A stretch of 64,000 nucleotides of DNA, from the NCBI GenBank assembly GCA_963794525.1, contig CAWCEC010000003.1, positions 124,003 through 188,002 of the forward strand. The letters are read 5' to 3'. Both the position numbers and the translations under genes were made by a program. Positions 3,723 through 42,331 of this stretch are shown here, in pieces. The stretch's first letter is position 1. Each line of letters starts with the position of its first letter. Below the pieces are notes generated by a model, which worked only from the letters and a program-made list of their open reading frames with translations, searched no databases and was not told where the DNA came from. Source of the DNA: an uncultured Chloroflexia bacterium. GTDB taxonomy: Bacteria; Chloroflexota; Limnocylindria; Limnocylindrales; CSP1-4.

Positions 3723-4021
3723 CGAATGTCCGTCCCTCCTTCGTCCGTGGCACGCGGTCGGCACCCGATGGGCCTTCGACGTCGTGCCGGCTCCCAATGT
3801 CAGGGAACGGCAGGCCGGCGCCCAGCCAGCCACCGGGCGTCTTCGCCGCTGGGGCTAGCCGCACCCCGGTGCGGTGATGCCCTCACAAATCACCGCGCCG
3901 GTGCATCCGCGCACCCCGGCATAGGAAGAAAGGGCTATCCTCCAGCAGGACCCCGACCCTAGGGCTTCTGGCCCCCAATCGGCACCGGGTCGGGCCAGAC
4001 CAATCCTTAGGGGGACGGGTC

Positions 4022-7436: not shown

Positions 7437-9404
7437 ATGACGGTCGAGACAGTCGAGCTCGGTCGCGACGCGATCGATCGACGCGCCTGGGAGGAAGCGG
7501 TCGAGGCCTTCGACGCCGCCGACCGTGATGGTGCGCTGGCACCGGCAGACCTCGAGCTGCTGGGCGCCGCCCGGTGGTGGTCAGGACACCCCGCGGAGGC
7601 TGCCGACGCGCTCGAGCGTGCGTTCACGGGGTTCGTCGAGACCGGCGCGGTCAAGGAGGCCGCCTGGGTCGCGCTCCAGCTCGCGTATCAGGCATTCCGA
7701 CGTCGGCTGAGCTCCATCGGCGGCGGGTGGCTGATGCGCGCCGAACATCTCCTCGAGGGTCAGCCCGAGTCGAACATCCACGCCCGGGCCATGGTGTTCC
7801 AGGCCATCGGAGCGTTGATGGCGAGCCGCCTCACGGAAGGGACCGAGCTCGCCGATCGTGCGATGGAGCTGGCTCGGAAACACGATGACCTGAACTCGAT
7901 GTACATGGCGATGAGCCTCAAGGGCTTGGGGAACGTGTTCGGCGGCGACTGGCAAGCCGGCCTCGCCCTCATCGATGAGGCCGCAACGGCCGCATCATCC
8001 GGTCAACTCGACCTACGCGTAGCGAGTGACATCTACTGCAACACGATCGCCGCGTGCCGGGACATCGGGGACTACAAGCGGGCCGGGCAGTGGGCAGAGG
8101 AAGGCGAGCGCTGGATGCGCCGCCAGTCGATCGGCGGCTACCCGGGCATCTGTCGGGTCCATCGCGCGGAGCTCAAGATGCTGCGCGGCCTGTGGCCCGA
8201 GGCGGAGCAGGAGGCACGCCAGGCGTGCGAGGAACTCGAGCGTTTCGGGCTTCTCGATTCCATGGGTTGGGCGCACTACCAGGTCGGCGAGGTCCGCTTG
8301 CGGATGGGCGACCTCGATGGTGCAGCAGAGGCGTTCGACCGGGCATACGAGTACGGGCACGATGCCCAGCCCGGCTTGGCGCTGCTGCAACTGGCTCGTG
8401 GCGAGGTCGACGAAGCTGCCCGCTCCATCGCGCGGGCGATCGCCGTGACGAAGGGGGCCGACCGGAACATCGATCGGGCCACCCGCGCCCGCCTGTTGCC
8501 CGCCCAGATCGACATCGCGCTCGCCGCAGGCGATCTCGAAACGGCCGGTCCGGCCGTCGATGAGCTCGAGTCGATCGCGACCGACTTCCAGCGACCGGTC
8601 TTCGAGGCGGGCGCGCTGACGGCGCGGGGCGAACTCCTCCTCCGCGAGGACCGGCCGGCCGAGGCATCCCCGATCCTGGGGCGATCCTGGCGGCTCTGGC
8701 AGGAGTCCGACCTCCCGTACGAGAGCGCGCTGGCCCGCCTCCACTACGCCGAGGCGCTGGCGGCCGACGGTGACGAGACGGCTTCTCGGCGCGATCTTCG
8801 TGCGGCTCGAAGCGCGTTCGAGCGCCTGGGCGCGACGCGGGACCTGCAGCGGGTCGATGCCATGCTCGGCGAGGACGCGGCCATGGCTGCCCCGTCATCG
8901 CGGCGCGTGACCAAGACGTTCATGTTCACCGACATCGTCACCTCGACCGACCTGGTCGGCCTCATCGGCGACGACGCCTGGGAGGAGCTGCTGCGCTGGC
9001 ACGACCGGGAGCTGCGATCGGCGTTCGCGCACCATCGTGGCGAGGAGGTCAATTCGACGGGCGACGGCTTCTTCGTCGCCTTCGAGCGGGCGGCCGACGC
9101 CATCGACTGCGCGGTCGACATCCAGCGCCGGCTCACGCGCCACCGTCGTGAGCACGGCTTCGCCCCGTTGGTCCGCATCGGGATCCACACCACCGAGGCG
9201 GCACACCAGGGCAGGGACTACCGGGGTAAGGGTGTGCACGTCGCTGCTCGCGTCAGTGCTGCCGCGGCCGCGGAGGAGATCCTTGTCTCGAGCGCCGCGC
9301 TGAGCGGGACAGGGCCGATCCGGTTCAGCCTGTCCGAGCCGCGTCAGCTGACGCTCAAGGGCGTCGAGGAGCCCGTGGAGGCGCGCAGCGTCGACTGGCG
9401 CTAG
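7437..9404 (+). CDS. TPR-repeat protein with a C-terminal class III adenylate/guanylate cyclase domain
   Basis: Start at MTVETVELG; the upstream part of the ORF overlaps the convergent lipoprotein gene. Cyclase motifs FMFTDIVTSTDL and NSTGDGFFVAFE are present, with TPR-like helical repeats N-terminal to them. Confidence 0.8.
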   Translation: MTVETVELGRDAIDRRAWEEAVEAFDAADRDGALAPADLELLGAARWWSGHPAEAADALERAFTGFVETGAVKEAAWVALQLAYQAFRRRLSSIGGGWLMRAEHLLEGQPESNIHARAMVFQAIGALMASRLTEGTELADRAMELARKHDDLNSMYMAMSLKGLGNVFGGDWQAGLALIDEAATAASSGQLDLRVASDIYCNTIAACRDIGDYKRAGQWAEEGERWMRRQSIGGYPGICRVHRAELKMLRGLWPEAEQEARQACEELERFGLLDSMGWAHYQVGEVRLRMGDLDGAAEAFDRAYEYGHDAQPGLALLQLARGEVDEAARSIARAIAVTKGADRNIDRATRARLLPAQIDIALAAGDLETAGPAVDELESIATDFQRPVFEAGALTARGELLLREDRPAEASPILGRSWRLWQESDLPYESALARLHYAEALAADGDETASRRDLRAARSAFERLGATRDLQRVDAMLGEDAAMAAPSSRRVTKTFMFTDIVTSTDLVGLIGDDAWEELLRWHDRELRSAFAHHRGEEVNSTGDGFFVAFERAADAIDCAVDIQRRLTRHRREHGFAPLVRIGIHTTEAAHQGRDYRGKGVHVAARVSAAAAAEEILVSSAALSGTGPIRFSLSEPRQLTLKGVEEPVEARSVDWR

Positions 9405-9433
9405 CCGCCGCACGCCCTCGAAAGACTGCGCTC

Positions 9434-9913
9434 CTAGACCGCGAGCACTCGCCGCAACTCCTCCTCGGCCTCCGGCGGCAAGGTCGTCTGGATCAGGTCG
9501 CCCTTGAACGGACGAAGCGCGGCGATGAGAGTCCCGGCCGAGCCTTCCCGGATGACCAGGAACAGCGCCGACCTCCCGGGGCTGAGCTGCTGCTCCATCT
9601 CCTTGATGAACGCGGGCTCGACCCCGGACTTGAGCATCGAGCCGATCGCGCCCCCCGCCGCGGCTCCGATCGCCGCCCCAGCGACGGGGAAGAAGAACAC
9701 GACGAAGGAACCGACGACCGCCCCGATCGCGGCGCCGGTCTCGGTCGCACCTGTCAGCTCATTCTTGACGTGGACTTTGCCGTCGTCGGTTCGGGACAGG
9801 ACCGCCGAGTCCTCGAGCTTGATCTGGCCTTCCTTCTCGAGCCCACGCACATGCTGCATGGCCTTCTGCGCGTCGTCCAACTGGTCGAACGCGACGACGA
9901 GGAGATCGCTCAT
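9434..9913 (-). CDS. DUF1269-family membrane protein
   Basis: Gly-rich transmembrane core (GAAIGAVVGSFVVFFFPVAGAAIGAAAGGAIG) flanked by soluble domains. Confidence 0.7.
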   Translation of the reverse strand: MSDLLVVAFDQLDDAQKAMQHVRGLEKEGQIKLEDSAVLSRTDDGKVHVKNELTGATETGAAIGAVVGSFVVFFFPVAGAAIGAAAGGAIGSMLKSGVEPAFIKEMEQQLSPGRSALFLVIREGSAGTLIAALRPFKGDLIQTTLPPEAEEELRRVLAV

Positions 9914-9973
9914 CTGCTGTCCTCCGTATCGAGGGTCACTCTCGACGGGAATGCCCTCATTGGTTGTCCGCGC

Positions 9974-10411
9974 TCACACGCGGCGGGGATGACGGGCTCG
10001 TTGGGACGCAAGGCGCGCATGTGCCTCGGCAAGCAGCGGCACGACGACCTCGGCGAAGGTCGACTCGCTCGGGTTGAGGATCGCGACCCAGAGCTGACGC
10101 GCATAGTCGGGATGCGGCAGCACGCGGTCGAGCGTTGTGTAGTCGGGCTTGGGCTCCGCTGCGGCGATGCGCTCCAGCGTCCGTCGGTTGACGCCCATGC
10201 TCAGACGAAAGACGCCGGGCCGCGACAGGTCCGAGACCTGGTCGGTGTCGTCGGACCAGACGAGCGTCGCGAAGTTCGGCCAGTGCTTCTCTGGGTCGAT
10301 CGAGAAGAAGCGCATGCCGTCGATGCTCACGACGTCGACGTCGAGAAAGGTGCTGGTGATGTACTCGGTGATCGTCTCCGGGTCGGGCCCGGAAGGCAGT
10401 GAATTGCTCAT
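9974..10411 (-). CDS. hypothetical protein
   Basis: 145-aa ORF with coding-like GC3; no family recognised. Confidence 0.5.
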   Translation of the reverse strand: MSNSLPSGPDPETITEYITSTFLDVDVVSIDGMRFFSIDPEKHWPNFATLVWSDDTDQVSDLSRPGVFRLSMGVNRRTLERIAAAEPKPDYTTLDRVLPHPDYARQLWVAILNPSESTFAEVVVPLLAEAHARLASQRARHPRRV

Positions 10412-10621
10412 GAATTGAGCCTAAGACATGCATGTCAAGAGGCCCCACGCCGCCTGCGCGCGTCGCTATCCTGCGGCCGGTGCACCTCCAGCGATCGGTT
10501 CGACCGGCGGCACATCATCATCGTCGTCAACCTCGCTCGGGCAGCGGTCCTGGCGGCACTTGCCGGCATCATCGTCACCGGTGCCGTCGACATCGGCGTC
10601 GTCCTATTCGCACTATTTCGG

Positions 10622-12277
10622 TCAGAGCGTGCCCGTGTCGAGCGAGACATCCGCTTCCAGGCGCTGACGGGACGCAGCGTCCGCGAGCGCGCGGCTACGC
10701 GGTTGTCCGGTCAATGCCTCGAGGAAGGGGCCACGATCGAGCGCCAGCAGCTCGGTCGGTGTCACGGCGACCACGGTCGCGGTCCGGGGGACGTCGCGCA
10801 GGAGGGCGATCTCGCCGAACGAATCGCCGCTCGTCTGGTGGCGCACCGCGCCGCTCGTCGTCGACACCTCGACGTCGCCAGACAAGATCACGTAAAACCG
10901 ATCACCGACCTCACCGGCAGTGACGATCGCCCGTCCCGGGTCGACCGTGACCGGCGTCGCGCCATTCGCGAGGCGCTCCAGCACCGGCCCCGAGAGCGGC
11001 CCGAACATCGGCACGCCTCGGAGCGCCCGCGATCGGCGCAGTCGACCCGGGTCGACACGATCGGCGCTGATAAGCGTCGGCGCCGCGATCGCAACGATGA
11101 CGCCGAGGACGAGGCCGCTGACGACGATCGCGGGCAGCATCCCGACGGCTGCGATCAGCACCGGTACCGCCAGCGCACCGAGCGCCTGCGAGGCCATCAT
11201 GGTCGACTCCATGACGCCGAACACGCGGCTCATGACGTCGTCACCCGCCATGCGCTGTGCGAGCGTCAGCGCCTCGACGTAGACGAACGCCCAGCCGGCC
11301 CCAGCGGCGACGACACAGGCGAGGATCACGATCGGCCCCGGTCCCAACCCGATCAGGGCGACCGCCCCAGCGAACAACGCACCGGCCGCGACGTACGCCG
11401 TCGCGAGGCGGTCCCGACCCATGAGCAAGCCAGTCGCGGCAGCTCCAACGACCGATCCGAGTCCGGCGACCGCCGAGATATACCCGATGGTGCTCTCGTC
11501 ACCCCCCAGGAGATCGATGGCGATGATCGCAACCAGGACGTTGAACGCGCCAAGGAGCGCGATCGCGCCACTGAGGATGGCCATCACCGCGAACAGCCGC
11601 CGATCGCGGGCGACCGTGCGAAGGCCCGCCGCGAGATCCCGCGCCAGACCGGGCCGGCGCGGTACGACGGCCTGGCTCACCAGTGGCCGTGACGACCTCG
11701 CGAGGGGCAGGACCGCCAATACCGATCCGAGGGCCAGCACCGCGTTCGTCGCGTAGACCGCGGCCGGCCCGGCATGGCCCACCAGCAAACCGACTAGGAG
11801 CGGCCCGATCAGCGCCCCTAATCCCTCCACGGTCCCCGACGCAGCGTTCGCGACGGCTAGCTCATCGGGGGTCTGGGCGACCTCCGGCAGCAACGCTGCG
11901 TGGGCCGGCCGGATCAGCGTGATGCTCGTGGCGGCCACCGTGGCCATCGCGTAGGCGACGATCGGTGGGGCCAGGACGAGCGCGACGGCCGTCGCAGCCA
12001 TCGATGCCGACAGGATCGCGTACGCGCCCGCGAGCACGCGAGCGCGCGGCCATCGATCGCCGAACATCGACGCCGCCGGCGCCACGATGATCGACGGGAG
12101 GAACACGACGCCGGCGACCACGCCCGCTTCGACCGGCCCGCCCTGCGAGTAGGCGAACACCACGAGGCCGATCCAGGACGCCCATTCCGTGACGCTGAAC
12201 GCGAGGAACGCCGGGATGAGGCGCCGCAGCGACGGGAGCCGCAGGACCGCGCGAACCGTGACGAGTGCGCCGGTCAT
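10622..12277 (-). CDS. MFS transporter fused to a C-terminal cyclic-nucleotide-binding (cNMP) domain
   Basis: About 12 transmembrane segments, then a cNMP motif FGEIALLRDVPRTATVVA. Confidence 0.8.
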   Translation of the reverse strand: MTGALVTVRAVLRLPSLRRLIPAFLAFSVTEWASWIGLVVFAYSQGGPVEAGVVAGVVFLPSIIVAPAASMFGDRWPRARVLAGAYAILSASMAATAVALVLAPPIVAYAMATVAATSITLIRPAHAALLPEVAQTPDELAVANAASGTVEGLGALIGPLLVGLLVGHAGPAAVYATNAVLALGSVLAVLPLARSSRPLVSQAVVPRRPGLARDLAAGLRTVARDRRLFAVMAILSGAIALLGAFNVLVAIIAIDLLGGDESTIGYISAVAGLGSVVGAAATGLLMGRDRLATAYVAAGALFAGAVALIGLGPGPIVILACVVAAGAGWAFVYVEALTLAQRMAGDDVMSRVFGVMESTMMASQALGALAVPVLIAAVGMLPAIVVSGLVLGVIVAIAAPTLISADRVDPGRLRRSRALRGVPMFGPLSGPVLERLANGATPVTVDPGRAIVTAGEVGDRFYVILSGDVEVSTTSGAVRHQTSGDSFGEIALLRDVPRTATVVAVTPTELLALDRGPFLEALTGQPRSRALADAASRQRLEADVSLDTGTL

Positions 12278-12295
12278 CCGCCCCAGTCTGACGAG

Positions 12296-13327
12296 TCAGC
12301 GCCAGTCTGGGATACCGCCGAGCGCGTGGGCGATGCCGTCCGCACGCAGTTCCAACCGGCCCGTGCCATCCGGACGTACAACATACAGCGCGCGGCCCGA
12401 GACAAGGAGGTAGCGGCCGTCCGGCGACCAGGCGACGAACTGGCCGACCTCGCTCGTGACACGGTGTTGGTCCGAGCCGTCGACGTTCATGACCCAGATG
12501 TCGCGATACTGATCGTCGGGCTCTCCTGTTTGCCAGCACTCCTCGTCCGCATCACGGAACTCGCAGTCGTCGCGTTCTGAGGAGAAGGCGATCGACGCGC
12601 CATCGGGTGACCAGACCGCCCAGCTGTCGTCGCCGGGGTGGTCGGTCAGCTGTCCCGTCGCTCCGGTCGCGAGGTCGGCGACGTAGATCTCGTAGTCGCT
12701 TCCGTCGTGGCCCTCGTATGCGATCCGCTGGCCGTCGGGCGAGAACGACGGGTATTCGAACCAGCCGTCGACGTCGATCGCGCGCAGATTCGACCCGTCC
12801 GGATCGACGAGATAGCCGCGCAGCCGACCACCGCCCCGGTCCGAGTTGAAGACGATCGTGCGACCGTCCGGCGACCAATCCGGACCCCAGTCGTTCGCAG
12901 GATCGTTCGTGATGTTCCGCCGCTCAGAGCCGTCCGCGCGTGCCACGAAGACCTCATCGTTCTCGTTGAGGCCACGGGTCGAGTCGCGGTAGACGACCCA
13001 CTCGCCGTCCGGCGACCAGGCCCCGTCGAATTCCGGGCCGACCGCGCCGGCAACCGTGACGACGTTCGAGCCGTCGATGTCCATGGCGAAGACGTCCTCG
13101 AAGTCGTCGAACACGATTCGCCCCGAGAGCTCGGCGAGCTCGGTCGGCTCGCCGGTCGAGATCGGTTCCCAGCCGCTGTGGACGACTCGCGAGGGCAGGG
13201 GAGTGCCGATCGAGGACGCTGCCGATGGCGCTTCGAAGAAACTCGGGCTGGCCGTGACGCTCGGTCCGGCGCAGCCGGTGAGCGAGATCGCGAGCACGGC
13301 TGCCGCCACGGGTCGAAGCGATGCCAC
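12296..13327 (-). CDS. lipoprotein with TolB-like (PD40) beta-propeller repeats
   Basis: Repeated WSPDG motifs. The likely GTG start at 13327 gives a lipoprotein signal VASLRPVAAAVLAISLTGC; the longer ORF extends to 13486. Confidence 0.65.
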   Translation of the reverse strand: MASLRPVAAAVLAISLTGCAGPSVTASPSFFEAPSAASSIGTPLPSRVVHSGWEPISTGEPTELAELSGRIVFDDFEDVFAMDIDGSNVVTVAGAVGPEFDGAWSPDGEWVVYRDSTRGLNENDEVFVARADGSERRNITNDPANDWGPDWSPDGRTIVFNSDRGGGRLRGYLVDPDGSNLRAIDVDGWFEYPSFSPDGQRIAYEGHDGSDYEIYVADLATGATGQLTDHPGDDSWAVWSPDGASIAFSSERDDCEFRDADEECWQTGEPDDQYRDIWVMNVDGSDQHRVTSEVGQFVAWSPDGRYLLVSGRALYVVRPDGTGRLELRADGIAHALGGIPDWR

Positions 13328-13412
13328 GTGCGCTCTACACCTGGCGACGTGTTTCGGTTCCGCAAAGTCTGCGACAGCCGAGCTGTCATGGACCGACCAC
13401 AGGATCATCGGC

Positions 13413-13664
13413 ATGGCCAAGGGTTCGAACGACTTCCGACATGCCGAGGCGGCGTGGTCCGCGGCTCGCCGGATGATCGCCCGCAAGGACCGGCCGTGCT
13501 ACCGCGTCGCCGAGACGGGCGACGGCGCGACCGTCCACATCGTCGAGCTGCCCTGGATCGCGCCGATCGAAGCGAGCCGCCGCGACGCCATCGATCGCGC
13601 CCGCGAGACGATCGCAGGCTGGCTCGACGTCCAGCCCGACGCTTTCGATGTCGAGCGAGGGTAG
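13413..13664 (+). CDS. small hypothetical protein (HicB/UPF0150-like?)
   Basis: 83-aa ORF with AGGA 8 nt upstream. The HIVELPWIAPIEASRRDAIDRARETIAGWL region resembles the HicB N-terminal fold; weak. Confidence 0.35.
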   Translation: MAKGSNDFRHAEAAWSAARRMIARKDRPCYRVAETGDGATVHIVELPWIAPIEASRRDAIDRARETIAGWLDVQPDAFDVERG

Positions 13665-13906
13665 GACGAGGCCAGTCGCTATCCTCTGACGAAATGACCG
13701 ACGACGACCTACCCGCCAGCGAAGCCGCCCGTGCGCGACGACGCGACCGCGACATGGAGGCGGAGCGGCGGGCGTTGATGCGCCCCGGGCTGGCGAAGGT
13801 CTTCCGCCAGGTCACCGATGCCAGCGCGAAGCCGCCCACGCCCAAGCAGCAGAAGACGAAGCGCGCGAAACAGAGGTAGGAGCGGATCCGCCGGGCTGGC
13901 AGCCCG

Positions 13907-15050
13907 TCACCGATCCGAGGTCTTGGCCTCGAACAGCTCCCACTCGCCCGGCACGCCCCGCAGGCTGGTGGCGCCAAGCGGGCTGAATACCAGGTCGGTG
14001 CCGGTGACCAGGTCGCGCACGGTCCTGGTCACGACGACCTGACTGCGTTCGGCGGGACCGAGCAGTCGCGCGGCGATGTGGATCGCGATACCGCCGATGC
14101 CGGTCTCGCGACGCTCGATCTCGCCGGTGTGGATGCCCACCCGGGTCTCGCAACCGAGATCCCGCGCCGCCTCGACCAGACCGAACGCGCAGCGCAGCGC
14201 CCGTGTCGGGGCGTCGAAGACCGCCATGACGCCATCGCCGGCGAACTCGACGTGTTCGCCGTGCCACCGCTCGACCTCGACTTGGACGGCCCGCTCGTGC
14301 TGCTCGAGGAGCTTCTTCCAGGCGCGATCTCCCATCGCGGCCGCGCGACCGGTCGAAATCGACGATGTCCGCGAACAGGACCGTCGCCAATGTCCGATCG
14401 ATGTCCTCTGCAGCCTGCAGCGATCGGACCTGTTCGTTGGTCCACTGGTATTCGTCGACGAAGCGGCTCGTCGGGACGTCGGGGTCGGGTCGGTAGGTGA
14501 GCAGGACGACGCCGGAGCTGAAGGTGCGTGAGCCCACGAGGCGCAGGTGGTGGGTGTCGATGCGGTCGCGGAAGAGACGCTTGCCGCTGCCCAGGATCAC
14601 CGGGTAGACCTGCAGTCGGTACTCGTCCACCAGATCGTGACGCAGGAGCTCGTCGACCAGGTCCGGGCTGCCGAACACCACCAGGTCGCCGCCCGGTTTC
14701 GCCTTCAACGTCCTGACCTCGCCCGCCACGTCACCCGAGACGATCGTGGAGTTGCTCCAATCGGCCCGCTTGAGCGTGTTGGAAACGACGTACTTCGGGA
14801 CGCGGTTCATCCACTCGATGAATTCGGCATCGCCCCCGCTGGCCGTCGGCCAGAACGCCGCCCAGATCTGCCAGGTCCGACGGCCCAACAGCATCGCGTC
14901 GGCAGACATCGCCTGTTCCATGTTGTAGCGCTGATCCTCGTCGTTCTGGACGCGCAGAGCCCAGGCGTTCCGGCCGCTCCGATGCTCGTCGAACCCGGGC
15001 GCCTCGACGATGCCATCGACGGTCACGAAGGAGGCCACGACAAGCTTCAT
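13907..15050 (-). pseudogene. DHFR-like (RibD C-terminal domain) protein fused to a class III adenylate cyclase domain, interrupted by a single frameshift near 14335-14354
   Basis: The N-terminal RibD_C-like domain (MKLVVASFVTVDGIVEAPG, VVFGSPDLVDELLRHDLVDEYRLQVYPVILGSGKRLF) runs into the cyclase start LATVLFADIVDF. The cyclase continues in another frame (ORF 13907-14335: GDRAWKKLLEQHERAV...FAGDGVMAVFD). Confidence 0.7.
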
Positions 15051-15120
15051 CACCGCAAGACTAGTCGTCGCGAGCGGCGGCGGGGCTCTGCCACCTTCGC
15101 TACGCCATATCCTTCTGGTC

Positions 15121-15933
15121 GTGCCTCTTTTCATGGACCGTCACGAGCTCGCGGGTGCGACGCCAGAAGACATCGCGGCGGCCCATACCGCAGACCTCGA
15201 CGTCCAGGGCCGGTTCGGCGTCCAGTACCTCACCTACTGGCTCGACTACGAGCGTCAGCGGGCGTTCTGTCTGGCCAGCGGTCCGGACCGCGACTCTGTC
15301 GTCGCAGTCCATCGAGCGAGTCATGGGATGCTCCCCAACGAGGTCATCGAAGTCGATGGGGGAGATGTCGAGCGCTACCTCGGCCCGATCCGCAACCATG
15401 CGCCGGGGGAGGTCTACGTGGAGACTGCCTTCCGGACGATCGTGTTCACCGACATCGTCGGATCGACCCGGCTCACGCAGCAGCTCGGAGACAGCGCGGC
15501 GATGGAGCTCCTGCGGGTGCATGACCGGATCGCGCGGGGTGCCGTCGGGCAGCGCGGCGGATCGGAGGTCAAACACACCGGTGACGGATTGATGGCGTCA
15601 TTCGGATCGGTCAGCGCGGCACTGGAGTCGTCCGTGGCCATCCAGCGCGAACTCGCCGATCACAACCGGACTGCGCCGCATCCGGTGGAGGTCCGGATCG
15701 GCGTGGCCGCGGGGGAACCGGTCCTCGAGAACGACGACCTGTTCGGGGCGGCCGTGCAGCTCGCCGCACGCCTGTGCGATCGCGCTCGACCCGGATCGAT
15801 CCTCGTGTCGGGTGCGGTCCGCGACCTCTCCATCGGCAAGCGGTTCGACTTCCAGCGCCGCGGCCGACTCACGATGAAGGGCTTCGATGAACCGGTCACC
15901 CTGTTCGAGGTCAGCTGGCAGGGGCCGGCTTGA
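15121..15933 (+). CDS. DUF4242-domain protein fused to a class III adenylate cyclase domain
   Basis: GTG start gives (M)PLFMDRHELAG, as in DUF4242. Cyclase motifs FRTIVFTDIVGSTRL and HTGDGLMASF follow. It is divergent from the frameshifted cyclase gene, with about 70 bp between the start codons. Confidence 0.8.
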   Translation: MPLFMDRHELAGATPEDIAAAHTADLDVQGRFGVQYLTYWLDYERQRAFCLASGPDRDSVVAVHRASHGMLPNEVIEVDGGDVERYLGPIRNHAPGEVYVETAFRTIVFTDIVGSTRLTQQLGDSAAMELLRVHDRIARGAVGQRGGSEVKHTGDGLMASFGSVSAALESSVAIQRELADHNRTAPHPVEVRIGVAAGEPVLENDDLFGAAVQLAARLCDRARPGSILVSGAVRDLSIGKRFDFQRRGRLTMKGFDEPVTLFEVSWQGPA

Positions 15934-16322
15934 TGAGCGCCCCGGCCGCGATCGTCTTCGCGATCCTCACCCTCGTCGCCGTCGGGTTCCAGGTCGCCCT
16001 CGCGCTCGGCGCGCCGTGGGGCGAATACGCGATGGGCGGCGCCAACCGGGGCAGGCTTCCACCGGCGATGCGCATCGCGGCACTCGTCCAGGCGATCATC
16101 CTCAGCATCCTGGCCCTGGGCGTCCTCCAGCGGGCAGGGCTGGTCGATGTCCCGATCCTGCGGGATCTGCCGTGGCTGATCTGGGTAGCCGTGGCGTTCT
16201 CGGCGGTCAGCCTCGTGCTCAACGCCATCTCGCGAAGCGCCGGGGAGCGACGGATCTGGGTGCCGGTGGCGCTGTTGATGCTCGGCTCGAGCCTGCTGGT
16301 GGCCCTCACGGCGGGACCATAG
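15930..16322 (+). CDS. small integral membrane protein
   Basis: 130 aa with four predicted transmembrane helices. The start overlaps the stop of the upstream gene (ATGA). Confidence 0.55.
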   Translation: MMSAPAAIVFAILTLVAVGFQVALALGAPWGEYAMGGANRGRLPPAMRIAALVQAIILSILALGVLQRAGLVDVPILRDLPWLIWVAVAFSAVSLVLNAISRSAGERRIWVPVALLMLGSSLLVALTAGP

Positions 16323-16330
16323 AGGTCACC

Positions 16331-16840
16331 TTGGGAGCCTTGGAACCGCGCGTCGGCGTGGCCGAACTGCCTGTCGACTCGGCGCACGGCATCGTCAGCA
16401 TCGGCCGCGAGACGTTCCCGGAGTTCGACCACTTCGAGCAGCTCGGCGTGCATGTCCAGTCGGATCGAGTGCGACAGGCGAGCCCGGATCCTGTCTACGT
16501 CGAGACGGCGTTGACCGCGCTGCGCCAGGCGGCTCGTGAGCTCGGTGTGCCCGAGGTCGATGTCGTCTTCGTCGACACGGTCGTCGCGCCGCCGGCGTTC
16601 GGGCTGCGCTACGGCTTCAAGGGCGCGTACACCACCGACCACCCGACCCTGATCTGGGTATTCGCCAACTGGACGTCGCTGGACGAGCTCGCCGTCACCG
16701 TCCGCCACGAGGCTGCCCACCTGGCGTTCGCACGCACACACACGGCCGAGGAGTCCGCTGGACATGTCGGACCCTCGGAGGATTTCGCCCTGGCGTTCGA
16801 GCATGCGCCGCCGACTGAGGACGACGCCGCACCGCCATAA
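16331..16840 (+). CDS. hypothetical protein with an HExxH motif (putative small zinc metallopeptidase)
   Basis: TTG start at 16331 with AGAGG 5 nt upstream (alternative GTG at 16358). HEAAH motif in VTVRHEAAHLAF. Confidence 0.4.
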   Translation: MGALEPRVGVAELPVDSAHGIVSIGRETFPEFDHFEQLGVHVQSDRVRQASPDPVYVETALTALRQAARELGVPEVDVVFVDTVVAPPAFGLRYGFKGAYTTDHPTLIWVFANWTSLDELAVTVRHEAAHLAFARTHTAEESAGHVGPSEDFALAFEHAPPTEDDAAPP

Positions 16841-16884
16841 TCGCTCCACCGCTGGGGCGACCTGTCAGCGGCATCCCGCACGAG

Positions 16885-17892
16885 GTGCCTTCCGTGGCCA
16901 CACAGCGCTTCGAGTCATCCGTCACCGCGGTGTCGTGGATCCCGTCAGAGGCGATCAGCGGCCCATCCAAGATCCCGTTCGAGTTCGGTGTGACCCACTA
17001 CGACGATCCCCCGCCGGATCGGCTCGAGGACATCGAGCAGCTGCGGACGAGTGACCGCTTCCGCGAAGCGAACGAGCTGCGCGGGTTCATCGAGGTCGAG
17101 GACGGCAAGATCGTGCGTGCCGGCCACCTCGGGCAGGGCCACATCGGCGCCACCACCGTCCGGGTCGGGCCGGCCGCCCTGCGCTTCCCCGCGGTCCAGC
17201 TGCCGGACATCCAGGCCGAGCCGGAGATCGGCCCCTCGTCCGCCCGCTTCGTCCAGACGGTCGGCGGCCGCATGGGCCTTCCCACGCCGCGACCCGTGCC
17301 GCACAAGCCATTCGTCCAGTTCTGGCCATCGATCGCCTGGACGACGCTCGCGCTGACGATCAACGCCGACGGCAGCTCGAGCCATGAGCTCCTGGGCGCG
17401 AGCGCGTTCCCGCGCCATTGGATCTACGACGACGAGGGAACGCTGACCGAGAAGTCCGGGGTGATCGACTTCGGGAAGTGGTTCAACGACTCGTTCGGCG
17501 AGCGGACGCCGTGGGGCGACCAGGACTCACCGACGGTCGTGGCCGCGGTCGAGTCGGCGCTCGAGCGGTCGCTGTCGAGCGCGATCATGAGCGGCGGCAC
17601 CAAGCCGAAGATCCAGACCATCCCGGAGGGCACCAACCTCGTCCGCCAGGGTCAGGGCGGCACGGAGGTCTACCTGATCCTCGACGGGATCTTCGTGGTC
17701 GAGGTCGACGATCGTGAGGTCGCCGAGATCGGTCCGGGTGCTGTGGTCGGCGAGCGAGCCGCGCTCGTGAACGGCACGCGAACGGCCACGTTATGGGCCC
17801 GCACGCCTGGCCGCGTCGCCAGCGTTCCCTATGACGCGCTCGATTCGCAGGCGCTCGGGAGCCTCGCGGCGGCGCATCAGCGCGAAAGGTAA
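16885..17892 (+). CDS. protein with a C-terminal cyclic-nucleotide-binding domain; N-terminal domain unknown
   Basis: GTG start. cNMP region EVYLILDGIFVVEVDDREVAEIGPGAVVGERAALVNGTRTATLWA. Confidence 0.7.
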   Translation: MPSVATQRFESSVTAVSWIPSEAISGPSKIPFEFGVTHYDDPPPDRLEDIEQLRTSDRFREANELRGFIEVEDGKIVRAGHLGQGHIGATTVRVGPAALRFPAVQLPDIQAEPEIGPSSARFVQTVGGRMGLPTPRPVPHKPFVQFWPSIAWTTLALTINADGSSSHELLGASAFPRHWIYDDEGTLTEKSGVIDFGKWFNDSFGERTPWGDQDSPTVVAAVESALERSLSSAIMSGGTKPKIQTIPEGTNLVRQGQGGTEVYLILDGIFVVEVDDREVAEIGPGAVVGERAALVNGTRTATLWARTPGRVASVPYDALDSQALGSLAAAHQRER

Positions 17893-17933
17893 CGCCGCTC
17901 TCGCCACGGCCGGAGGGGGACTCGAGGGCAAGG

Positions 17934-19844
17934 ATGGATCGTGATCCGCTGGCACTGTCCGCCGAGTCCATGCGCGAGATGGGCTACGCGGTCGTGGACA
18001 TGCTCATCGCGCGGATCGAGGCGCTTCGGAGCGGACCGGTCCTTCGGACCGAAACCCTCGAGCGGATGCTGGAGCGCCTCGACGGACCGCCATCGGCCGG
18101 GCCGCGCGACTTCACGGAGCTCCTTCGTGGTCTCGATGAGGACGTCCTGCCATTCGTCGGCCACTTCGACCATCCGCAATTCTTCGGCTACATCCCGGGC
18201 GCCGGCACGTGGCCCGCGGCGCTCGGAGACCTGATCGCGGCAGCCACCAATATCGATGCCGGCGCCTGGCGGGAAGGCGTCGGGCCGACCACGCTGGAGC
18301 TCATCGTCCTCGACTGGTTCCGTGACTGGATCGGCTACCCCGAGTCGGCGTCTGGAGTCCTCGTGTCCGGCGGGTCGGCCGCGAACCTCACGGCGATCGC
18401 GTGTGCCAGAGAGGCGCTCATCGGTCCGATGTCACCGCGCATCGTCATGTACACCGGCGACCAGACCCACTCGTCGGTCGCTCGCGCCGCGCGCCACCTC
18501 GGCTTCCGGCCCGATCAGCTCCGCGTTCTGCCGAGCGACGAGTCATTCCGCCTGCGTCCAGGGGACGTCGCCGCGGCGATCGACGCCGACATCGCCGCGG
18601 ATCGGCTGCCGTTCCTCGTCAGCGCGAACGCCGGCACGACGAACACCGGTGCGGTCGACCCGATCGGCGACCTTGCCAAGGTGTGCCACGACCGTGGTGT
18701 CTGGCTCCATGTCGATGGGGCGTACGGCGCATTCGCGGTCCTGACGGAACGCGGTCGGCAAGCGATGCCCGACCTCGCTGCCGCGGATTCCGTGACCCTC
18801 GATCCGCATAAGTGGCTCGCGATGCCGTTCGAGGTCGGCTGTCTGCTCGTGCGGGATGGGGCGATGCTCGAGGGGGCATTCGAGTTGCACCCCGAGTACC
18901 TCAAGGACCGCGACGAGCACGCGGGCGTCAATTTCGCGGATCGAGGGCTGCAGCTGACACGGGCCAGCCGCTCGATCAAGGTCTGGCTGGCCATCGAAAC
19001 GTTCGGACTTGATGCCTTCCGGGCGGCCATCGACCGCGCGATCGATCAAACACTCGCGGCCCAGGCCCGGATCGAGGCCGACCCGCGGCTCGAGCTCATG
19101 ACCTCGGCCTCACTCGGGATCCTCACGTTCCGCCGTCGAGGCACGCCCAGCGAGCCCACCATCGTCACGGACCGCCGCAATGAAGCCATCGTCAAGTCGA
19201 TCGCTGCGAGCGGCAAGGTCCTGCTCACGTCGACGATGGTCCAGGGGCGCTATGCGATCCGCATGTGCGTGCTCAACCACACGACGGAGGATGAGGACGT
19301 CGTCTTCGCACTCGACCGTGTCGCCGAGGCGGACGTGTCGGACCTCGAGGTCGCGGCATCGCAGCCGACGGGGCGACAGGTCGCCGGGACGACCGTGGAG
19401 GCGGCTGCGGCGGCACCCTCAGGATCGCGCGGGGCTGACCTCAGGCGTGTGCGCGGGTTCGAATCGCTCACCGACGAGCAGGCGACGCGCTTTCTCGCGG
19501 TCGCACGAGAGGAAACGCGTCGGAGAGGCGAGACCATCACCGAGCGCTGGGCACATGCCCGCACGTTCTACATCGTGCTCGACGGCGAGGTGTCGATCAC
19601 GATCGATGGCGTCGAGGTGAACCGTCTGGCCGGCGGCGAGTCCTTCGGTGAGATCGCCGCGATCGATTGGGGCCGTGATTTCAGCTACGGCCGGACGGCG
19701 ACGGTGACCACGACGATGCCGACGCGGCTCCTGGCCGTGCCGGGCGCGGCGCTGCGCGAGCTGATGCTCGACGCACCACGGGTCGATGCCTCGATCCGCC
19801 AGATCGCCTTCGAACGCATGCGTCGCGTAGGGACCACCGTCTGA
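17934..19844 (+). CDS. group II PLP-dependent amino-acid decarboxylase (aromatic-L-amino-acid / glutamate decarboxylase family) fused to a C-terminal cNMP-binding domain
   Basis: PLP-lysine motif SVTLDPHKWL and conserved VSGGSAANLTA. C-terminal cNMP region FYIVLDGEVSITIDG...GESFGEIAAI...RTATV. Confidence 0.85.
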   Translation: MDRDPLALSAESMREMGYAVVDMLIARIEALRSGPVLRTETLERMLERLDGPPSAGPRDFTELLRGLDEDVLPFVGHFDHPQFFGYIPGAGTWPAALGDLIAAATNIDAGAWREGVGPTTLELIVLDWFRDWIGYPESASGVLVSGGSAANLTAIACAREALIGPMSPRIVMYTGDQTHSSVARAARHLGFRPDQLRVLPSDESFRLRPGDVAAAIDADIAADRLPFLVSANAGTTNTGAVDPIGDLAKVCHDRGVWLHVDGAYGAFAVLTERGRQAMPDLAAADSVTLDPHKWLAMPFEVGCLLVRDGAMLEGAFELHPEYLKDRDEHAGVNFADRGLQLTRASRSIKVWLAIETFGLDAFRAAIDRAIDQTLAAQARIEADPRLELMTSASLGILTFRRRGTPSEPTIVTDRRNEAIVKSIAASGKVLLTSTMVQGRYAIRMCVLNHTTEDEDVVFALDRVAEADVSDLEVAASQPTGRQVAGTTVEAAAAAPSGSRGADLRRVRGFESLTDEQATRFLAVAREETRRRGETITERWAHARTFYIVLDGEVSITIDGVEVNRLAGGESFGEIAAIDWGRDFSYGRTATVTTTMPTRLLAVPGAALRELMLDAPRVDASIRQIAFERMRRVGTTV

Positions 19845-19921
19845 GACTGTCTGGGCGGGCGCGTCACGAGCCTCGTCATCCGTCGCCGACGGACCACCGC
19901 TCGACGGACTAGGCTGCCGTC

Positions 19922-21328
19922 ATGACGTCCTCGCAAGCCGTTTCGCCAACAGCCGCCCAGCTCGAAACGTTTCGTCGGTCCTTCGCGGGCGAGGTGATCA
20001 CGCCCGATGCCGCCGGCTACGACGATGCCAGGCGGGTCTGGAACGCGATGTTCGATCGTCGACCGGCCATGGTCGTCCGACCCTCGAGTGTCGCCGACGT
20101 CGTCGCGGCCGTTCGCTTCGGCCGCGAGCTCGATCTCGAGATCGCGGTCCGCGGTGGTGGTCACAGCGCCGTCGGGCACTCGACGACCAACGGCGGCCTG
20201 GTCATCGACCTCGGGCGGATGAACGAGGTCACCGTCGACCCGGCGCAGCGACTCGCTCGCACGGGCGGTGGGGCGCTCCTCGGCAAGCTCGACATCGCGG
20301 CCCAGGAGCACGGGCTCGTCTGCCCGGTCGGAGTCGTCGGCCACACGGGTGTGGCCGGCTTGACGCTCGGTGGCGGCGTCGGGCGGCTCCAGCGGCGGTT
20401 CGGGCTGACGATCGATAGCCTTCGCTCGGTCGAGCTCGTGACCGCCGACGGGCGCCTGGTGCGGGCGAGCGCGGACGAGGAGCCGGAGCTGTTCTGGGGC
20501 CTCCGCGGCGCCGGCGCGAACTTCGGCGTCACGACGAGCCTGGAGCTCGAGCTGCACCCCTTTCCGGGAACGCTCCACCGAGGCGTCCACGTCCACCCGG
20601 CGACTGACATCCAGGAGCTCTGGCCGATCTTCCGCGAGTTCATGGCGACGGCCCCCGAAACCATCGCGGCGATCTTCACCGTCGCCCTCGCAGAGCCGGC
20701 GGCGAACTACCCCAATTCGGTCGCCGGTCGGCCGATCGTCGTCATCTCCTACAACCACAGCGGGGCAGGGGAGGACGCGGAGCGCGACGTCGCGCCATTG
20801 CTAAAGGGCCCGGCACCAGCCTCGAAGACCGCCACCAGCGAGGAGTACCTGGTCGCCCAGCGTTCGAGCGACCTCGACCTGGCATGGGGCTCCCGGACCG
20901 CCATCCTCGGTGGCTACGTCGCGGATTGTTCGCCGGCCGTGCTGGATGCGTTCGTCGGGCACGTGGAGCACGTGCCGGGCGACAGCAGCATCTCGGTAAC
21001 GGCGATGGGCGGCGCGATCGCTCGCGTGGCGGACGACGCGATGGCATTCACCGGCCGTCCCCACCCCTTCGACGTCAGCCCCGACACGGCCTGGTCCGAT
21101 CCGGCCCTCGACGAGGCGAACATGGAATGGGCACGGCGGGCGATGGCGATCATCGAGCCAGACATGCTTCCCGGCCGCTACATCAACGAGTTGTCCGATG
21201 CGGGTCCCGAGATCACGCGATCCAGCTACGGCGACGCCAAGCTGGAGCGATTACAGACGCTCAAGCGAGCCTGGGACCCGACCAACGTCTTCCACCTGAA
21301 CCACAACGTCGAGCCCGCCGGCGGCTGA
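19922..21328 (+). CDS. FAD-binding oxidoreductase (FAD_binding_4 / berberine-bridge-enzyme-like)
   Basis: RPSSVADVVAAVRFGRE, GGGHS and a C-terminal BBE-like tail LKRAWDPTNVFHLNHNV. Confidence 0.85.
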   Translation: MTSSQAVSPTAAQLETFRRSFAGEVITPDAAGYDDARRVWNAMFDRRPAMVVRPSSVADVVAAVRFGRELDLEIAVRGGGHSAVGHSTTNGGLVIDLGRMNEVTVDPAQRLARTGGGALLGKLDIAAQEHGLVCPVGVVGHTGVAGLTLGGGVGRLQRRFGLTIDSLRSVELVTADGRLVRASADEEPELFWGLRGAGANFGVTTSLELELHPFPGTLHRGVHVHPATDIQELWPIFREFMATAPETIAAIFTVALAEPAANYPNSVAGRPIVVISYNHSGAGEDAERDVAPLLKGPAPASKTATSEEYLVAQRSSDLDLAWGSRTAILGGYVADCSPAVLDAFVGHVEHVPGDSSISVTAMGGAIARVADDAMAFTGRPHPFDVSPDTAWSDPALDEANMEWARRAMAIIEPDMLPGRYINELSDAGPEITRSSYGDAKLERLQTLKRAWDPTNVFHLNHNVEPAGG

Positions 21329-21330
21329 CA

Positions 21331-21350
21331 CGGTGGGTTGATACTGCCGG
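21331..21350 (+). promoter_or_regulatory. 20-nt motif CGGTGGGTTGATACTGCCGG immediately 5' of the amine-oxidase ATG; copy 1 of a shared motif
   Basis: Near-identical to 27055-27075, CGGTGGGGTCGATACTGCCGG, which is 5' of the acyl-CoA synthetase ATG. The core GATACTGCCGG recurs, inverted, in the palindrome at 26375-26393. Confidence 0.4.
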
Positions 21351-21351
21351 C

Positions 21352-22798
21352 ATGACGATGCCGGCCGACCCTGAGCACCACGCGGAGCTCGATGTTGCGA
21401 TCGTGGGAGCGGGCGCGGCCGGAACGTACCTCGGCTATCGGCTGATCCGGGCCCGTCCGGACTGGCGGATCGCGATCTTCGAGCGGTCGACCCGGATCGG
21501 CGGCCGCCTCTGGAGTGTGAAGGTCGACGGGCTCGCGCACCCGATCGAGCTCGGGGGCATGCGCTACATGTCCGGGCATCCGCTGATCCAGTCGATCGTC
21601 GACGAGTTGGGGATCGAAACACGCGCCTTCGATACCGCCGAGCAACCCGAACGGACCTTCCTGCGTGGCGTGGTGGGTGACAGCCCGGACGATCCTGATG
21701 GCGGGCGTGGCTATGACCTGGCGGCCAAGGAGGCGGGACGGTCGGCGTCCGATCTCATGCGGGCTGCCTTCCTCAGGATCGTGCCGCAGGCCGGCGAGCT
21801 CGACGAGCCGGCCTGGCGTCGACATCGCGCGACGGCGACATTCGGCGGGCGGCCGCTCACGGACTGGTCGATCGAGGAGGCCGTCGCGACGATCCTCAGC
21901 CCGCAGGCCCATCGCTTCGCCACCGACGCGTTCGGCTACGACTCTGGCATCCGCCCCCATAACGCTGGCGACGCGATCCAGTACGTCATGGGCACCGGCT
22001 ATCCGTCGGGTGAGGCGCGCGTTCCCGTCGACGGCATGGACTGGATCCCGCGTGAGCTCGTCAAACAGTTCATGGCGCTCGGGGGGATCGTCGAGCTCGG
22101 CCACGACCTGCTTCGGGTCGATCCAGAGGAGAGGAGCGTCCTTCTCGGCTTCGCCGACGGCTCAGGCGTCCGGGCGCGAAGGCTTGTCCTCACGCTCCCG
22201 ATCCCCGCCCTCGAGGCACTGGCCGATGGCTCGCCACTCATCAACGGTCCGACATGGCGACGGCTGTACAGGTCGATCGCGGGCTACCCGGCGACGAAGC
22301 TGTACTGCTGGTACGACCGGCCCTGGTGGCGCGACGGCAAAGACGCCCCCACCGGCCTCCGGACGACGACAGACTTGCCGCCCCGCAAGATCTTCTACTT
22401 CGACGAGGGGCCCGATCGACCCGCCGCGATGCTCGCCGCCTTCACCGACTTTCGGCACAACGAGCCGATCGTCGCCCTGGCCGAGAGCCCGGGTGGCGGA
22501 GCACCGGCTCCAGGGCCGCTCCTGGAGGCGCTCCGGGGCTGGCTGCGCCCATCCGGGCGCGGAGGTCCCCACTCTGCCCCTCGGCTCCGCGTTCCAACAC
22601 TGGGGCGCCGACCCGCGGGAGGTCGCATGGCACTTCTGGCGGCAGGGCAGCAACTCCGACGAGATGATCGACCTCGCCGCGCAGCCAGACCCATCCCTGC
22701 CGATCCACCTGTGCGGCGAAGTGTTCTCGCGCCGCGGCGCTTGGGTGGAGGGCGCCCTCGAGACGGCGAAGGCTGTCGCCGACCGCGTCGTGGGCTGA
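21352..22798 (+). pseudogene. flavin-containing amine oxidase (NAD(P)/FAD-binding), single frameshift near 22535-22545
   Basis: Dinucleotide-binding fold DVAIVGAGAAGTY. The C-terminal tail GEVFSRRGAWVEGALETAKAVADRV lies in frame 2. Removing one C from a CCC run restores LRGWLRHPGAEVP. Confidence 0.7.
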
Positions 22799-23243
22799 GG
22801 TCTGCCTCGAGCCCAACGTCTTTGCGGCTTCGCGGCGAATGCCGGACTTCGGGCCGAAATTGCGGCTCGTCATGACGAACTGCGATCGCCCCGAGAACAT
22901 CGGGCCTGCTCATCGGAATCGGCCATCTTGAGGGCGCCGTACCCGAGGCCAGGGGCAGTCCTCGCCCCCCTCATGCGTCCGATCGACATCCTTTCTGGGC
23001 AGGGCTTATGTCGTCCGACCAACGCGACCGGCGGAGATTGAACCGAATCACTTCCCGCGACGCCTAGTCGATGAGGGGTCCACACCATGGACCAGCGTGT
23101 GCCGCGCCTGTTGCCGGCGCGGACGCTGAAGGGAGGGACGCGGATTGACCGATCTCGATCAGCCGTCGAGGGGCTGATCCGGGCTCTCGACACGCACGGG
23201 CGCTCGGTGATGACAACGAAGCACTGGTTCGAGGAAATACGTC

Positions 23244-34192: not shown

Positions 34193-34262
34193 CGCTACCG
34201 TGATCGGGTCGAGACCTCGGTCATAGAGTCGCTGCCGACTGAGGCGGCATGATATCCGGGCC

Positions 34263-38197: not shown

Positions 38198-38213
38198 GCG
38201 CGGCGGCGCAACC

Positions 38214-41647: not shown

Positions 41648-41683
41648 CGACCGAGCCAAGCCCGTAACGCTAGGAGACCAGCC

Positions 41684-42331
41684 ATGTCACTCGCGCGCGT
41701 CCAATTCTTCTCGATCTCGCTCGACGGTTTCGGCACCGGCGAAGGTCAGAGCCTTGAGGCACCGTTCGGCCACGCCGGCGAACGGCTGCACGAGTGGATG
41801 TTCGTCACTCGGTGGTGGAGCGACAGGGTCGGCGAGCCGGGCGGCAGCGGCGGCGTCGACGACGCCTTCTTGCGGCTGCACGATCCGGGGATCGGCGCCG
41901 AGATCATGGGTGCCGGGAAGTTCGGCCCACCCGGATGGCACGAAGACCCGGAGTGGAAGGGCTGGTGGGGTCCCAACCCGCCATTCCACACCCCGGTCTT
42001 CGTCCTCACCCACCACCCGCGCCCATCGATCGAGATGGAGGGCGGCACGACGTTCCACTTCATCGACGCTTCGCCCGCCGAAGCGCTCGAGAAGGCCCGT
42101 GAGGCTGCGGGCGGCCAGGACGTACGACTCGGGGGAGGGGCCACCATGATCCGCGAGTTCCTTGCTGCACGGCTCGTCGACCATATGCACGTCGCGGTGG
42201 TCCCGATCCTGCTGGGCCGGGGCGAACGCCTCTGGGACGGACTGGAGGGCCTCGAGAAGGACTACGTGATCGAGGCAACCTCGTCGCCCAGCGGCGTGAC
42301 GCACCTGACGTTCACGCGCGCGGCTGTCTGA
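41684..42331 (+). CDS. dihydrofolate-reductase-family protein (RibD C-terminal domain / YwjB-like)
   Basis: Motifs ISLDGFGTG, GGGATMIREFLAARLVDHMHVAVVPILLG and GRGERLW. A paralog of the N-terminal domain of the frameshifted cyclase fusion. Confidence 0.8.
   Translation: MSLARVQFFSISLDGFGTGEGQSLEAPFGHAGERLHEWMFVTRWWSDRVGEPGGSGGVDDAFLRLHDPGIGAEIMGAGKFGPPGWHEDPEWKGWWGPNPPFHTPVFVLTHHPRPSIEMEGGTTFHFIDASPAEALEKAREAAGGQDVRLGGGATMIREFLAARLVDHMHVAVVPILLGRGERLWDGLEGLEKDYVIEATSSPSGVTHLTFTRAAV

Follow-up and report, generated by a model that had tools for sequence, protein, structure and literature searches.

The section at positions 7437–19844 of a 64,000-nucleotide window (GenBank contig CAWCEC010000003.1, positions 124,003 to 188,002 of the forward strand; "the window" means this whole stretch) from an uncultured bacterium of the Limnocylindria (Chloroflexota) carries three class III nucleotide cyclases and three proteins with a C-terminal cyclic-nucleotide-binding (CNB) domain. 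It is probably a lineage-specific cyclic nucleotide (cNMP) signalling neighbourhood in a variable region of the chromosome. The cyclases are named here after their N-terminal partners: TPR-cyclase, with a MalT-like tetratricopeptide repeat (TPR) region; RibD_C-cyclase, with a dihydrofolate reductase (DHFR)-like RibD_C domain; and SCO4226-cyclase, with an SCO4226-like domain, formerly DUF4242. The CNB proteins are a major facilitator superfamily (MFS) transporter (MFS-CNB), a protein with an N-domain X that has no Pfam model (X-CNB), and a pyridoxal phosphate (PLP)-dependent decarboxylase (decarboxylase-CNB). A reading made from the letters alone (the sequence-only reading) had placed these six architectures within 12 kb, and Pfam recovered all of them there, including the RibD_C (PF01872) and DUF4242 (PF14026) assignments.

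The clustering of cNMP genes exceeds chance because six are observed in 12.4 kb where about 0.2 cyclase or CNB genes would be expected. The expectation derives from the 870 kb of flanks around SCO4226-cyclase genes in other genomes, which hold about 12 extra cyclase domains and three CNB domains, and the local concentration proposed earlier is thus borne out. Hidden Markov models built from the window's own domains, each from three sequences and therefore liable to miss divergent domains, detected no other cyclase or CNB domain in the remaining ~51 kb of the window. Reading frames were chosen by third-position GC (GC3), the window having a G+C content of ~69%.

A core consisting of RibD_C-cyclase, decarboxylase-CNB, X-CNB, and a BBE oxidase recurs in relatives in shuffled orders, joined in some of them by TPR-cyclase and MFS-CNB. 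Among 44 RibD_C-cyclase loci, of which many lie on short contigs, the BBE oxidase is the most frequent neighbour (21 loci), followed by decarboxylase-CNB (nine loci on eight distinct contigs, L089 and L092 being the same contig), TPR-cyclase (six), and X-CNB (three); SCO4226-cyclase occurs in none. TPR-cyclase adjoins RibD_C-cyclase in L001, L002, L090, L110, and L120 (loci of other genomes are cited by L number), and MFS-CNB genes of 48% identity lie near RibD_C-cyclase in L003 and L088. The orientations vary, being convergent in L087 and divergent in L088 and L089, with a separation of ~2 kb in L097–L099, and L171 carries, within 12 kb, a BBE gene, X-CNB, a second decarboxylase, a P450, decarboxylase-CNB, a GGDEF gene, and RibD_C-cyclase. 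The core is uncharacterised but common in the Limnocylindria lineage, and named matches to the window proteins come from "Candidatus Limnocylindrales" or Chloroflexota metagenome-assembled genomes.

A conserved Sensor/HisKA_3 kinase gene and a conserved sigma-70 gene flank the neighbourhood at opposite ends, and every relative examined has its own gene order and content between them. A conserved unit of all six genes is therefore not upheld: RibD_C-cyclase is relocated even in the closest relative, L087 (~88% nucleotide identity), relative to which the block of RibD_C-cyclase and SCO4226-cyclase has moved to a different junction in the window, and the nearest SCO4226-cyclase relatives have no cNMP neighbours; those in L007 and L008 are an AMP-binding enzyme, a HAD hydrolase, and a plain MFS transporter. 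SCO4226-cyclase is a local addition to the neighbourhood. The MFS-CNB and PD40 genes are kept in the window and deleted or truncated in L087, and the 63-amino-acid open reading frame (ORF) listed in Table 1, kept in L087 at 81% identity, marks one edge of the block rearranged between both genomes. In the MFS-CNB counterpart of L087 (3306–4484), a 580-bp internal deletion has removed most of the transporter core and leaves a 392-amino-acid CNB protein beside a separate plain MFS gene.

The region is a loosely conserved, rearranging functional neighbourhood, neither an operon nor a mobile island. The latter does not apply because the window, when scanned, contained no tRNA genes or Rfam families, and no compositional shift is seen, GC remaining flat at 0.66–0.72. 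A horizontally acquired island was considered and rejected as unsupported, given this flat GC and the absence of integrase or other mobility genes in the window. A promoter and terminator scan of the window gave nothing above shuffled expectation.

Table 1. Coordinates of the features discussed, in window positions
Feature	Position	Strand	Size	Basis or remark
TPR-cyclase	7437..9404	+	655 aa	Pfam TPR_MalT + C-terminal Guanylate_cyc
MFS-CNB	10622..12277	-	551 aa	Pfam MFS_1 + C-terminal cNMP_binding; cassette FGEIALL..PRTATV
Small ORF	13473-13664	+	63 aa	Between PD40 gene and RibD_C-cyclase
RibD_C (DHFR-like)-cyclase	13907..15050	-	380 aa with one T removed	RibD_C in one frame, rest of cyclase in another
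TTT run with single extra T (+1 insertion)	14356..14358	-		GATTCG -> GATTTCG
SCO4226-like (PF14026)-cyclase	15121..15933	+	270 aa	GTG start; Pfam; Guanylate_cyc 57.8 bits
Small hydrophobic protein	15930..16322	+	130 aa	Apparently four membrane helices; conserved in L087
ORF with HEAAH (HExxH-like) motif	16331..16840	+		Coding-type GC3; start uncertain
X-CNB	16894..17892 (ORF from 16885)	+	332 aa	N-domain + C-terminal CNB; cassette VGERAAL..TRTATL
Decarboxylase-CNB	17934..19844	+	636 aa	Pyridoxal_deC (PF00282) 226 bits + C-terminal cNMP_binding
BBE-type FAD-linked oxidase	19922..21328	+	468 aa
Flavin-containing amine oxidase	21352..22875	+
Standalone RibD_C gene	41648-42331
Peptidase_M14 carboxypeptidase	51025-52615	+		Gene split between two frames

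In bacterial class III cyclases, a sensor located N-terminal to the catalytic domain is the usual arrangement, as in Rv1264, Rv1900c, and the GAF, PAS, and BLUF cyclases, and the cyclase-AAA-TPR-LuxR order of Rv0386 is the exception. The claim that the window cyclases reverse a familiar cyclase-first order therefore falls. Their partner domains, which had been called unusual, are also widespread: 120 of the 120 best matches listed for RibD_C-cyclase, a conserved 380-amino-acid protein of Limnocylindria metagenomes, carry RibD_C together with a cyclase domain, nearly all with 376–383 amino acids and 78–88% identity, and SCO4226-cyclase has 291 confirmed matches across the GTDB species genomes, in many phyla, including Chloroflexota, Actinomycetota, Binatia, Verrucomicrobiota, and Proteobacteria, with a cultured Vibrio among them. 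The partner-domain fusions are uncharacterised rather than rare. Literature searches on Limnocylindria cyclases, the RibD_C-cyclase fusion, the structure 8JSV, and the MFS-CNB protein Rv3728 found nothing; those on DUF4242 and on CNB-decarboxylase fusions returned papers, none of which characterises the fusions seen here.

All three cyclases possess the metal-binding Asp pair (motifs FxDIxxST and GDG) and the catalytic Arg, read on alignments to Ma1120 and Rv1900c with residue roles taken from a published study (PMC4215837). These residues are invariant in 127 RibD_C-cyclases and 79 SCO4226-cyclases; the conservation figures cover these two families, and the TPR-cyclase residues come from a single-protein alignment. 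Degenerate catalytic residues, raised earlier as the finding that would count against the cyclases, were thus not encountered: none of the three looks like a pseudo-cyclase, and all are predicted to be competent class III enzymes. The transition-state Asn of helix alpha4 is replaced by His in TPR-cyclase and RibD_C-cyclase and by Gln in SCO4226-cyclase, which is no argument for inactivity because the active Rv1900c (His) and Ma1120 (Ala) also lack it.

The three differ at the positions that specify the purine. TPR-cyclase, whose 655-amino-acid product is identical to the public gene call, has an Asn/Asp pair, which, like the His at its Asn position, is as in Rv1900c, and SCO4226-cyclase has a Lys/Asp pair; neither carries the guanylyl-type Glu with Gly or Cys. 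SCO4226-cyclase is predicted to be an adenylyl cyclase with cyclic AMP (cAMP) as product because of its Lys-Asp pair. Its residues D111, K151, D155, D206, and R217 are invariant in the 79 family sequences, as are D6, H8, H22, D25, H64, and H68 of the N-domain, which matches PF14026 from end to end (60.7 bits). The gene is divergent from that of RibD_C-cyclase, the measured distance of 70 bp agreeing with the earlier estimate.

The RibD_C domain of RibD_C-cyclase covers positions 2–197 of the 197 of its Pfam profile (87.8 bits), and in the repaired protein described below it scores 116.9 bits to the structure 8jsv and 88 bits to YyaP (2gd9), with its Gly-rich "VFGSPDL" loop aligned to the GS/GG loops of both. 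It is conserved like the cyclase domain, with a mean top-residue frequency of 0.87 vs. 0.88, and the Joint Genome Institute (JGI) automatically names the protein "class 3 adenylate cyclase/dihydrofolate reductase". A folate or pterin input to this cyclase, as suggested in the sequence-only reading, is pure conjecture from the fold. The standalone paralog of the domain that had been reported does exist as a gene, though only as a distant relative (28% identity over 74 amino acids).

In the catalytic domain of RibD_C-cyclase, the metal-binding Asp residues are D228 and D272, the specificity pair is E268/G317, and these are accompanied by H324 and R328. D228, D272, and R328 are 100% conserved among the 127 family sequences, and the combination E268-G317-H324 is found in 124 of them. 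Two metagenome contigs (L112, L113), encoding the two most divergent RibD_C-cyclases at ~60% identity, carry Lys-Asp-His; the exchange between Lys-Asp and Glu-Gly is a coupled switch at exactly both purine-specifying positions. These Lys-Asp enzymes are useful natural controls for the Glu-Gly clade. The Glu and Gly of RibD_C-cyclase align with the engineered residues of the Ma1120 mutant structure 5d0g. The guanylyl cyclase Cya2 has the same Glu-Gly pair, and the Ma1120 K101E/D157G variant had the best guanylyl cyclase activity (PMC4215837).

In the three CNB domains (PF00027), the phosphate-binding cassette retains the Glu that contacts the ribose 2'-OH and the Arg that contacts the phosphate. 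Selectivity for cyclic GMP (cGMP) or cAMP was sought in the ranking of PDB matches and in the RTAT motif, and both were judged uninformative. The decarboxylase-CNB cassette reads FGEIAAI..GRTATV, with a five-residue insert. The decarboxylase domain contains the PLP lysine motif DPHKW, and its best solved relatives are 4obu (252 bits; presumably the tryptophan decarboxylase of Ruminococcus gnavus), to which the motif was aligned, then plant tyrosine and animal DOPA decarboxylases, as well as Trp decarboxylases; an NCBIfam match to diaminobutyrate decarboxylase stays below threshold (198 bits against a cut-off of 900). By these matches it is assigned as a putative group II PLP enzyme of the aromatic-L-amino-acid-decarboxylase type. 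Nearly all of its 120 best matches, at 64–100% identity, keep the CNB domain.

The N-domain of X-CNB is conserved and beta-rich and comprises ~235 amino acids. For the protein, the GTG at 16894 is the more likely start because the homologues have 332 amino acids; matches are 84–94% identical and form a conserved family. The N-domain family has 1267 representatives of 50% clusters at E <= 0.001, and 28 of 40 sampled members contain a CNB domain. An alignment-based AlphaFold model (pLDDT, the predicted local distance difference test score, 84.7) shows a beta-rich domain, and the one fold lead for it is 3c5p, the functionally uncharacterised protein BAS0735. The near-invariant polar residues D37, R57, Q121, R126, S170, R174, and H175 of the N-domain (16894–17600) suggest an active site, and the N-domain, being fused to a CNB domain, is recognisable as a regulated output module. 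X-CNB, decarboxylase-CNB, the BBE oxidase, and the flavin amine oxidase are co-directional, with short gaps, over 16894–22875.

The RibD_C-cyclase gene is interrupted by a frameshift that had been noticed in the sequence-only reading and is real in the deposited sequence, where an extra T within the FxDIVDST metal-binding motif breaks the frame. The frame coding for RibD_C leads into 'TLATVLFADIVDF', and the cyclase resumes in the +1 frame as "STGRAAAMGD..."; removal of one T from the TTT run restores FADIVDSTG, the canonical motif, and the repaired protein aligns without a break across the site to the Rv1900c cyclase domain (1ybt, 137.8 bits). The gene has 1144 nucleotides in the window, 1143 in six relatives, and 1140 in a seventh, and its nucleotide alignment with these seven shows no window-specific indel other than the extra T. 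The repaired protein shows zero substitutions at positions at least 97% conserved among 127 relatives, and GC3 retains its coding signal in both halves. A second gene of the window, for the Peptidase_M14 carboxypeptidase, is split in the same manner, with profile positions 2–144 in one frame and 148–265 in the other and the junction at an AAA run (~51606–51612), and genes broken into separate pieces are likewise seen in L007 and L008, two related assemblies with long contigs. A further frameshift, suspected at 15891–16840 from a flip of the GC3 phase, was ruled out, since two separate genes lie there, the small membrane-protein gene and the HEAAH-motif ORF.

The reading we favour for the neighbourhood, and hold to be the more credible one, is that a cNMP circuit, possibly using cGMP, allosterically controls aromatic-amine metabolism and transport. 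Three inputs would be received by N-terminal domains, the TPR region, the DHFR-like RibD_C domain, and the SCO4226-like ferredoxin-fold domain with its invariant Asp/His cluster, and each cyclase would turn its own signal into cNMP through a catalytic domain of the Rv1900c/Ma1120 type. The cNMP from RibD_C-cyclase would bind the C-terminal CNB domains and thereby switch the decarboxylase, which may convert aromatic amino acids to aromatic amines, the X enzyme or adaptor, and the MFS transporter. Further processing of the amine may fall to the BBE oxidase and the flavin amine oxidase, whose genes run in the same direction.

The nucleotide produced by RibD_C-cyclase may be cGMP, or mixed cGMP and cAMP, because the clade has the Glu-Gly pair of Cya2. 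Several observations weigh against the use of cGMP or against a sensory role of RibD_C: the Glu-Gly pair is no proof of GTP use, the RTAT motif of the CNB cassettes does not separate cGMP from cAMP, and the RibD_C domain could be an enzyme, not a sensor. Sinha et al. are said to have found in 2005 that the specificity positions of Rv1900c-type cyclases tolerate mutation. In addition, the RibD_C-cyclase family lacks the Tyr that in Cya2 stands three residues past the Asn position and raises guanylyl cyclase activity (PMC4215837), position 327 being Ala in 96% and Ser in 4% of its sequences. A network running on cAMP alone, in which each of the three cyclases makes cAMP and the Glu-Gly pair has no effect on the product of RibD_C-cyclase, has a substantial chance of being right, if a little below even. 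In its favour, the solved enzymes closest to these cyclases, Rv1900c and Ma1120, act as adenylyl cyclases, the missing Tyr agrees with this explanation, the Ma1120 triple mutant became no more than equally efficient on ATP and GTP (PMC4215837), and bacterial guanylyl cyclases are rare (PMC3770947). However, the restriction of Lys-Asp to the most divergent members of a family in which Glu-Gly is otherwise kept argues for selection on a distinct specificity, and Cya2 with this pair is a bona fide guanylyl cyclase (PMC4215837). The most specific proposal, that the RibD_C-cyclase clade is a natural guanylyl cyclase whose DHFR-like domain senses NADPH or a metabolite of the pterin or flavin type and whose cGMP gates decarboxylase-CNB, X-CNB, and MFS-CNB, is regarded as improbable in this complete form.

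Two further explanations concern the locus itself. The frameshift is likely a homopolymer assembly error and not a mark of a pseudogene, because the extra T is the only window-specific indel, the conserved sites are intact, a second gene of the window is split at a homopolymer, and L007 and L008 contain split genes. It could be a genuine recent mutation. In a rival explanation, the RibD_C-cyclase of this strain is a true pseudogene, and the SCO4226-cyclase next to it has taken over the function of the lost core cyclase. The broken frame of the deposited sequence is consistent with this, as is the fact that this is the only locus with SCO4226-cyclase beside RibD_C-cyclase, both inserted as one block relative to L087; the single indel in a homopolymer, the preserved sites and coding signal, and the unrelated frameshifted gene make such a loss unlikely. 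Frameshifts in long-contig metagenome assemblies do not warrant a pseudogene call without read support. Mere co-location, in which numerous cyclases and CNB proteins pile up in a recombination-prone variable region and the six genes form no circuit, would fit the differing island content of close relatives, including the translocated RibD_C-cyclase and the deletions and swaps relative to L087, the unrelated neighbours of SCO4226-cyclase in L007 and L008, and the other cyclases scattered in relatives' flanks, e.g., in L001 and L088. Within 10 kb of a decarboxylase-CNB gene of 67% identity (L170) there is neither a cyclase nor a further CNB gene, and RibD_C-cyclase has only the BBE oxidase nearby in L004–L006, which likewise count against a coupled circuit. 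Yet the same partners, decarboxylase-CNB, X-CNB, the BBE oxidase, and TPR-cyclase, turn up next to RibD_C-cyclase on 10 or more distinct contigs, in varied orders and orientations, the pattern expected from selection for proximity, and the background density of cyclase and CNB genes in flanks is far lower. Co-location without coupling is considered unlikely, and the preferred reading remains a coupled, rearranging neighbourhood.

What the lineage offers is a variant of known signalling parts that is specific to it, common within it, and uncharacterised, and that raises a testable hypothesis of cGMP signalling: a large cyclase family with guanylyl-type residues, in a very common lineage of soil Chloroflexota, linked to CNB-fused enzymes and transporters. 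If the cGMP hypothesis is true, an abundant uncultured soil group would possess a cGMP-controlled biogenic-amine pathway and a fourth well-defined bacterial cGMP system would be added, and the decarboxylase would be, to our knowledge, the first PLP decarboxylase gated by a second messenger. Amine production would gain a new regulatory logic if a PLP aromatic amino-acid decarboxylase were allosterically controlled by cNMP. Bacterial cGMP signalling is represented by a handful of systems, and its role has been described as poorly understood (PMC3770947).

Several other genes of the window were recorded. Of the two genes between SCO4226-cyclase and X-CNB, the one for the 130-amino-acid hydrophobic protein has a weak relative upstream of a SCO4226-cyclase in L015, and the HEAAH-motif ORF, which has no family match in Pfam or NCBIfam, has its position occupied by a cytochrome P450 gene in L087. 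Elsewhere, the plus strand encodes an unusual-looking fusion of a type II/IV secretion ATPase (T2SSE) to an endoribonuclease L-PSP (RidA-like) domain at its C-terminus (3878–5965); a SWIM/DUF5691 protein of 953 amino acids followed, after a gap, by a DUF5682 protein (872 bits) and a VWA_CoxE protein (34227–41647), the DUF5691/SWIM gene being present also in the relative L006 (1–2373); and a protein with the layout of class III/IV lanthipeptide synthetases, in which a Ser/Thr protein kinase domain is joined to a LanC-like one (44144–46630).

Among known systems, the adenylyl cyclases Rv1900c (LipJ) of Mycobacterium tuberculosis and Ma1120 of M. avium share the catalytic-domain subtype of all three window cyclases, which score 137.8, 88.8, and 78.2 bits to 1ybt and 75–94 bits to 4wp3/4wp9 (Ma1120). 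Like the window cyclases, Rv1900c has an N-terminal non-cyclase domain, there an alpha/beta hydrolase, ahead of the C-terminal cyclase domain, and both reference enzymes have a residue other than Asn at the transition-state position; the Asn/Asp pair of Rv1900c is common to TPR-cyclase. The partners are different here, RibD_C, SCO4226-like, and TPR, and RibD_C-cyclase has Glu-Gly, not Asn-Asp or Lys-Asp. The latter cyclase resembles Synechocystis Cya2 in having Glu and Gly at both purine-specifying positions. However, the activity-enhancing Tyr of Cya2 is replaced, its catalytic domain is of a different subgroup, and Cya2 (2w01) was absent from the RibD_C-cyclase sequence matches at E <= 0.01.

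The closest precedents for the proposed mechanism are a cGMP pathway of Xanthomonas and mycobacterial CNB-enzyme fusions. A class III cyclase genetically linked to a fused enzyme under allosteric CNB control is known from Xanthomonas campestris XC_0250/XC_0249 (PMC3770947), with the difference that the effector XC_0249 is a GGDEF diguanylate cyclase whereas in the window a PLP decarboxylase, an MFS transporter, and the X domain are the putative effectors, and that XC_0250 has other active-site substitutions than the window cyclases. In the cAMP-regulated mycobacterial acetyltransferase Pat (Rv0998), a CNB domain fused to an enzyme serves as an allosteric switch, as is predicted here, and the CNB domains of the window match the Pat model (NCBIfam NF058543) and the structure 4ava. 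The partner in the window is a fold-type I PLP decarboxylase and the CNB domain is C-terminal, in contrast to its N-terminal position in Pat. The nickel-binding SCO4226 of Streptomyces coelicolor (4oi3) belongs to PF14026 and is matched, structure included, by the N-domain of SCO4226-cyclase; its nickel sites bind with low affinity, lie exposed on the surface, and show poor conservation (PMC4186839). Unlike this stand-alone 82-amino-acid protein, the cyclase-fused family has its own invariant set of Asp and His residues.

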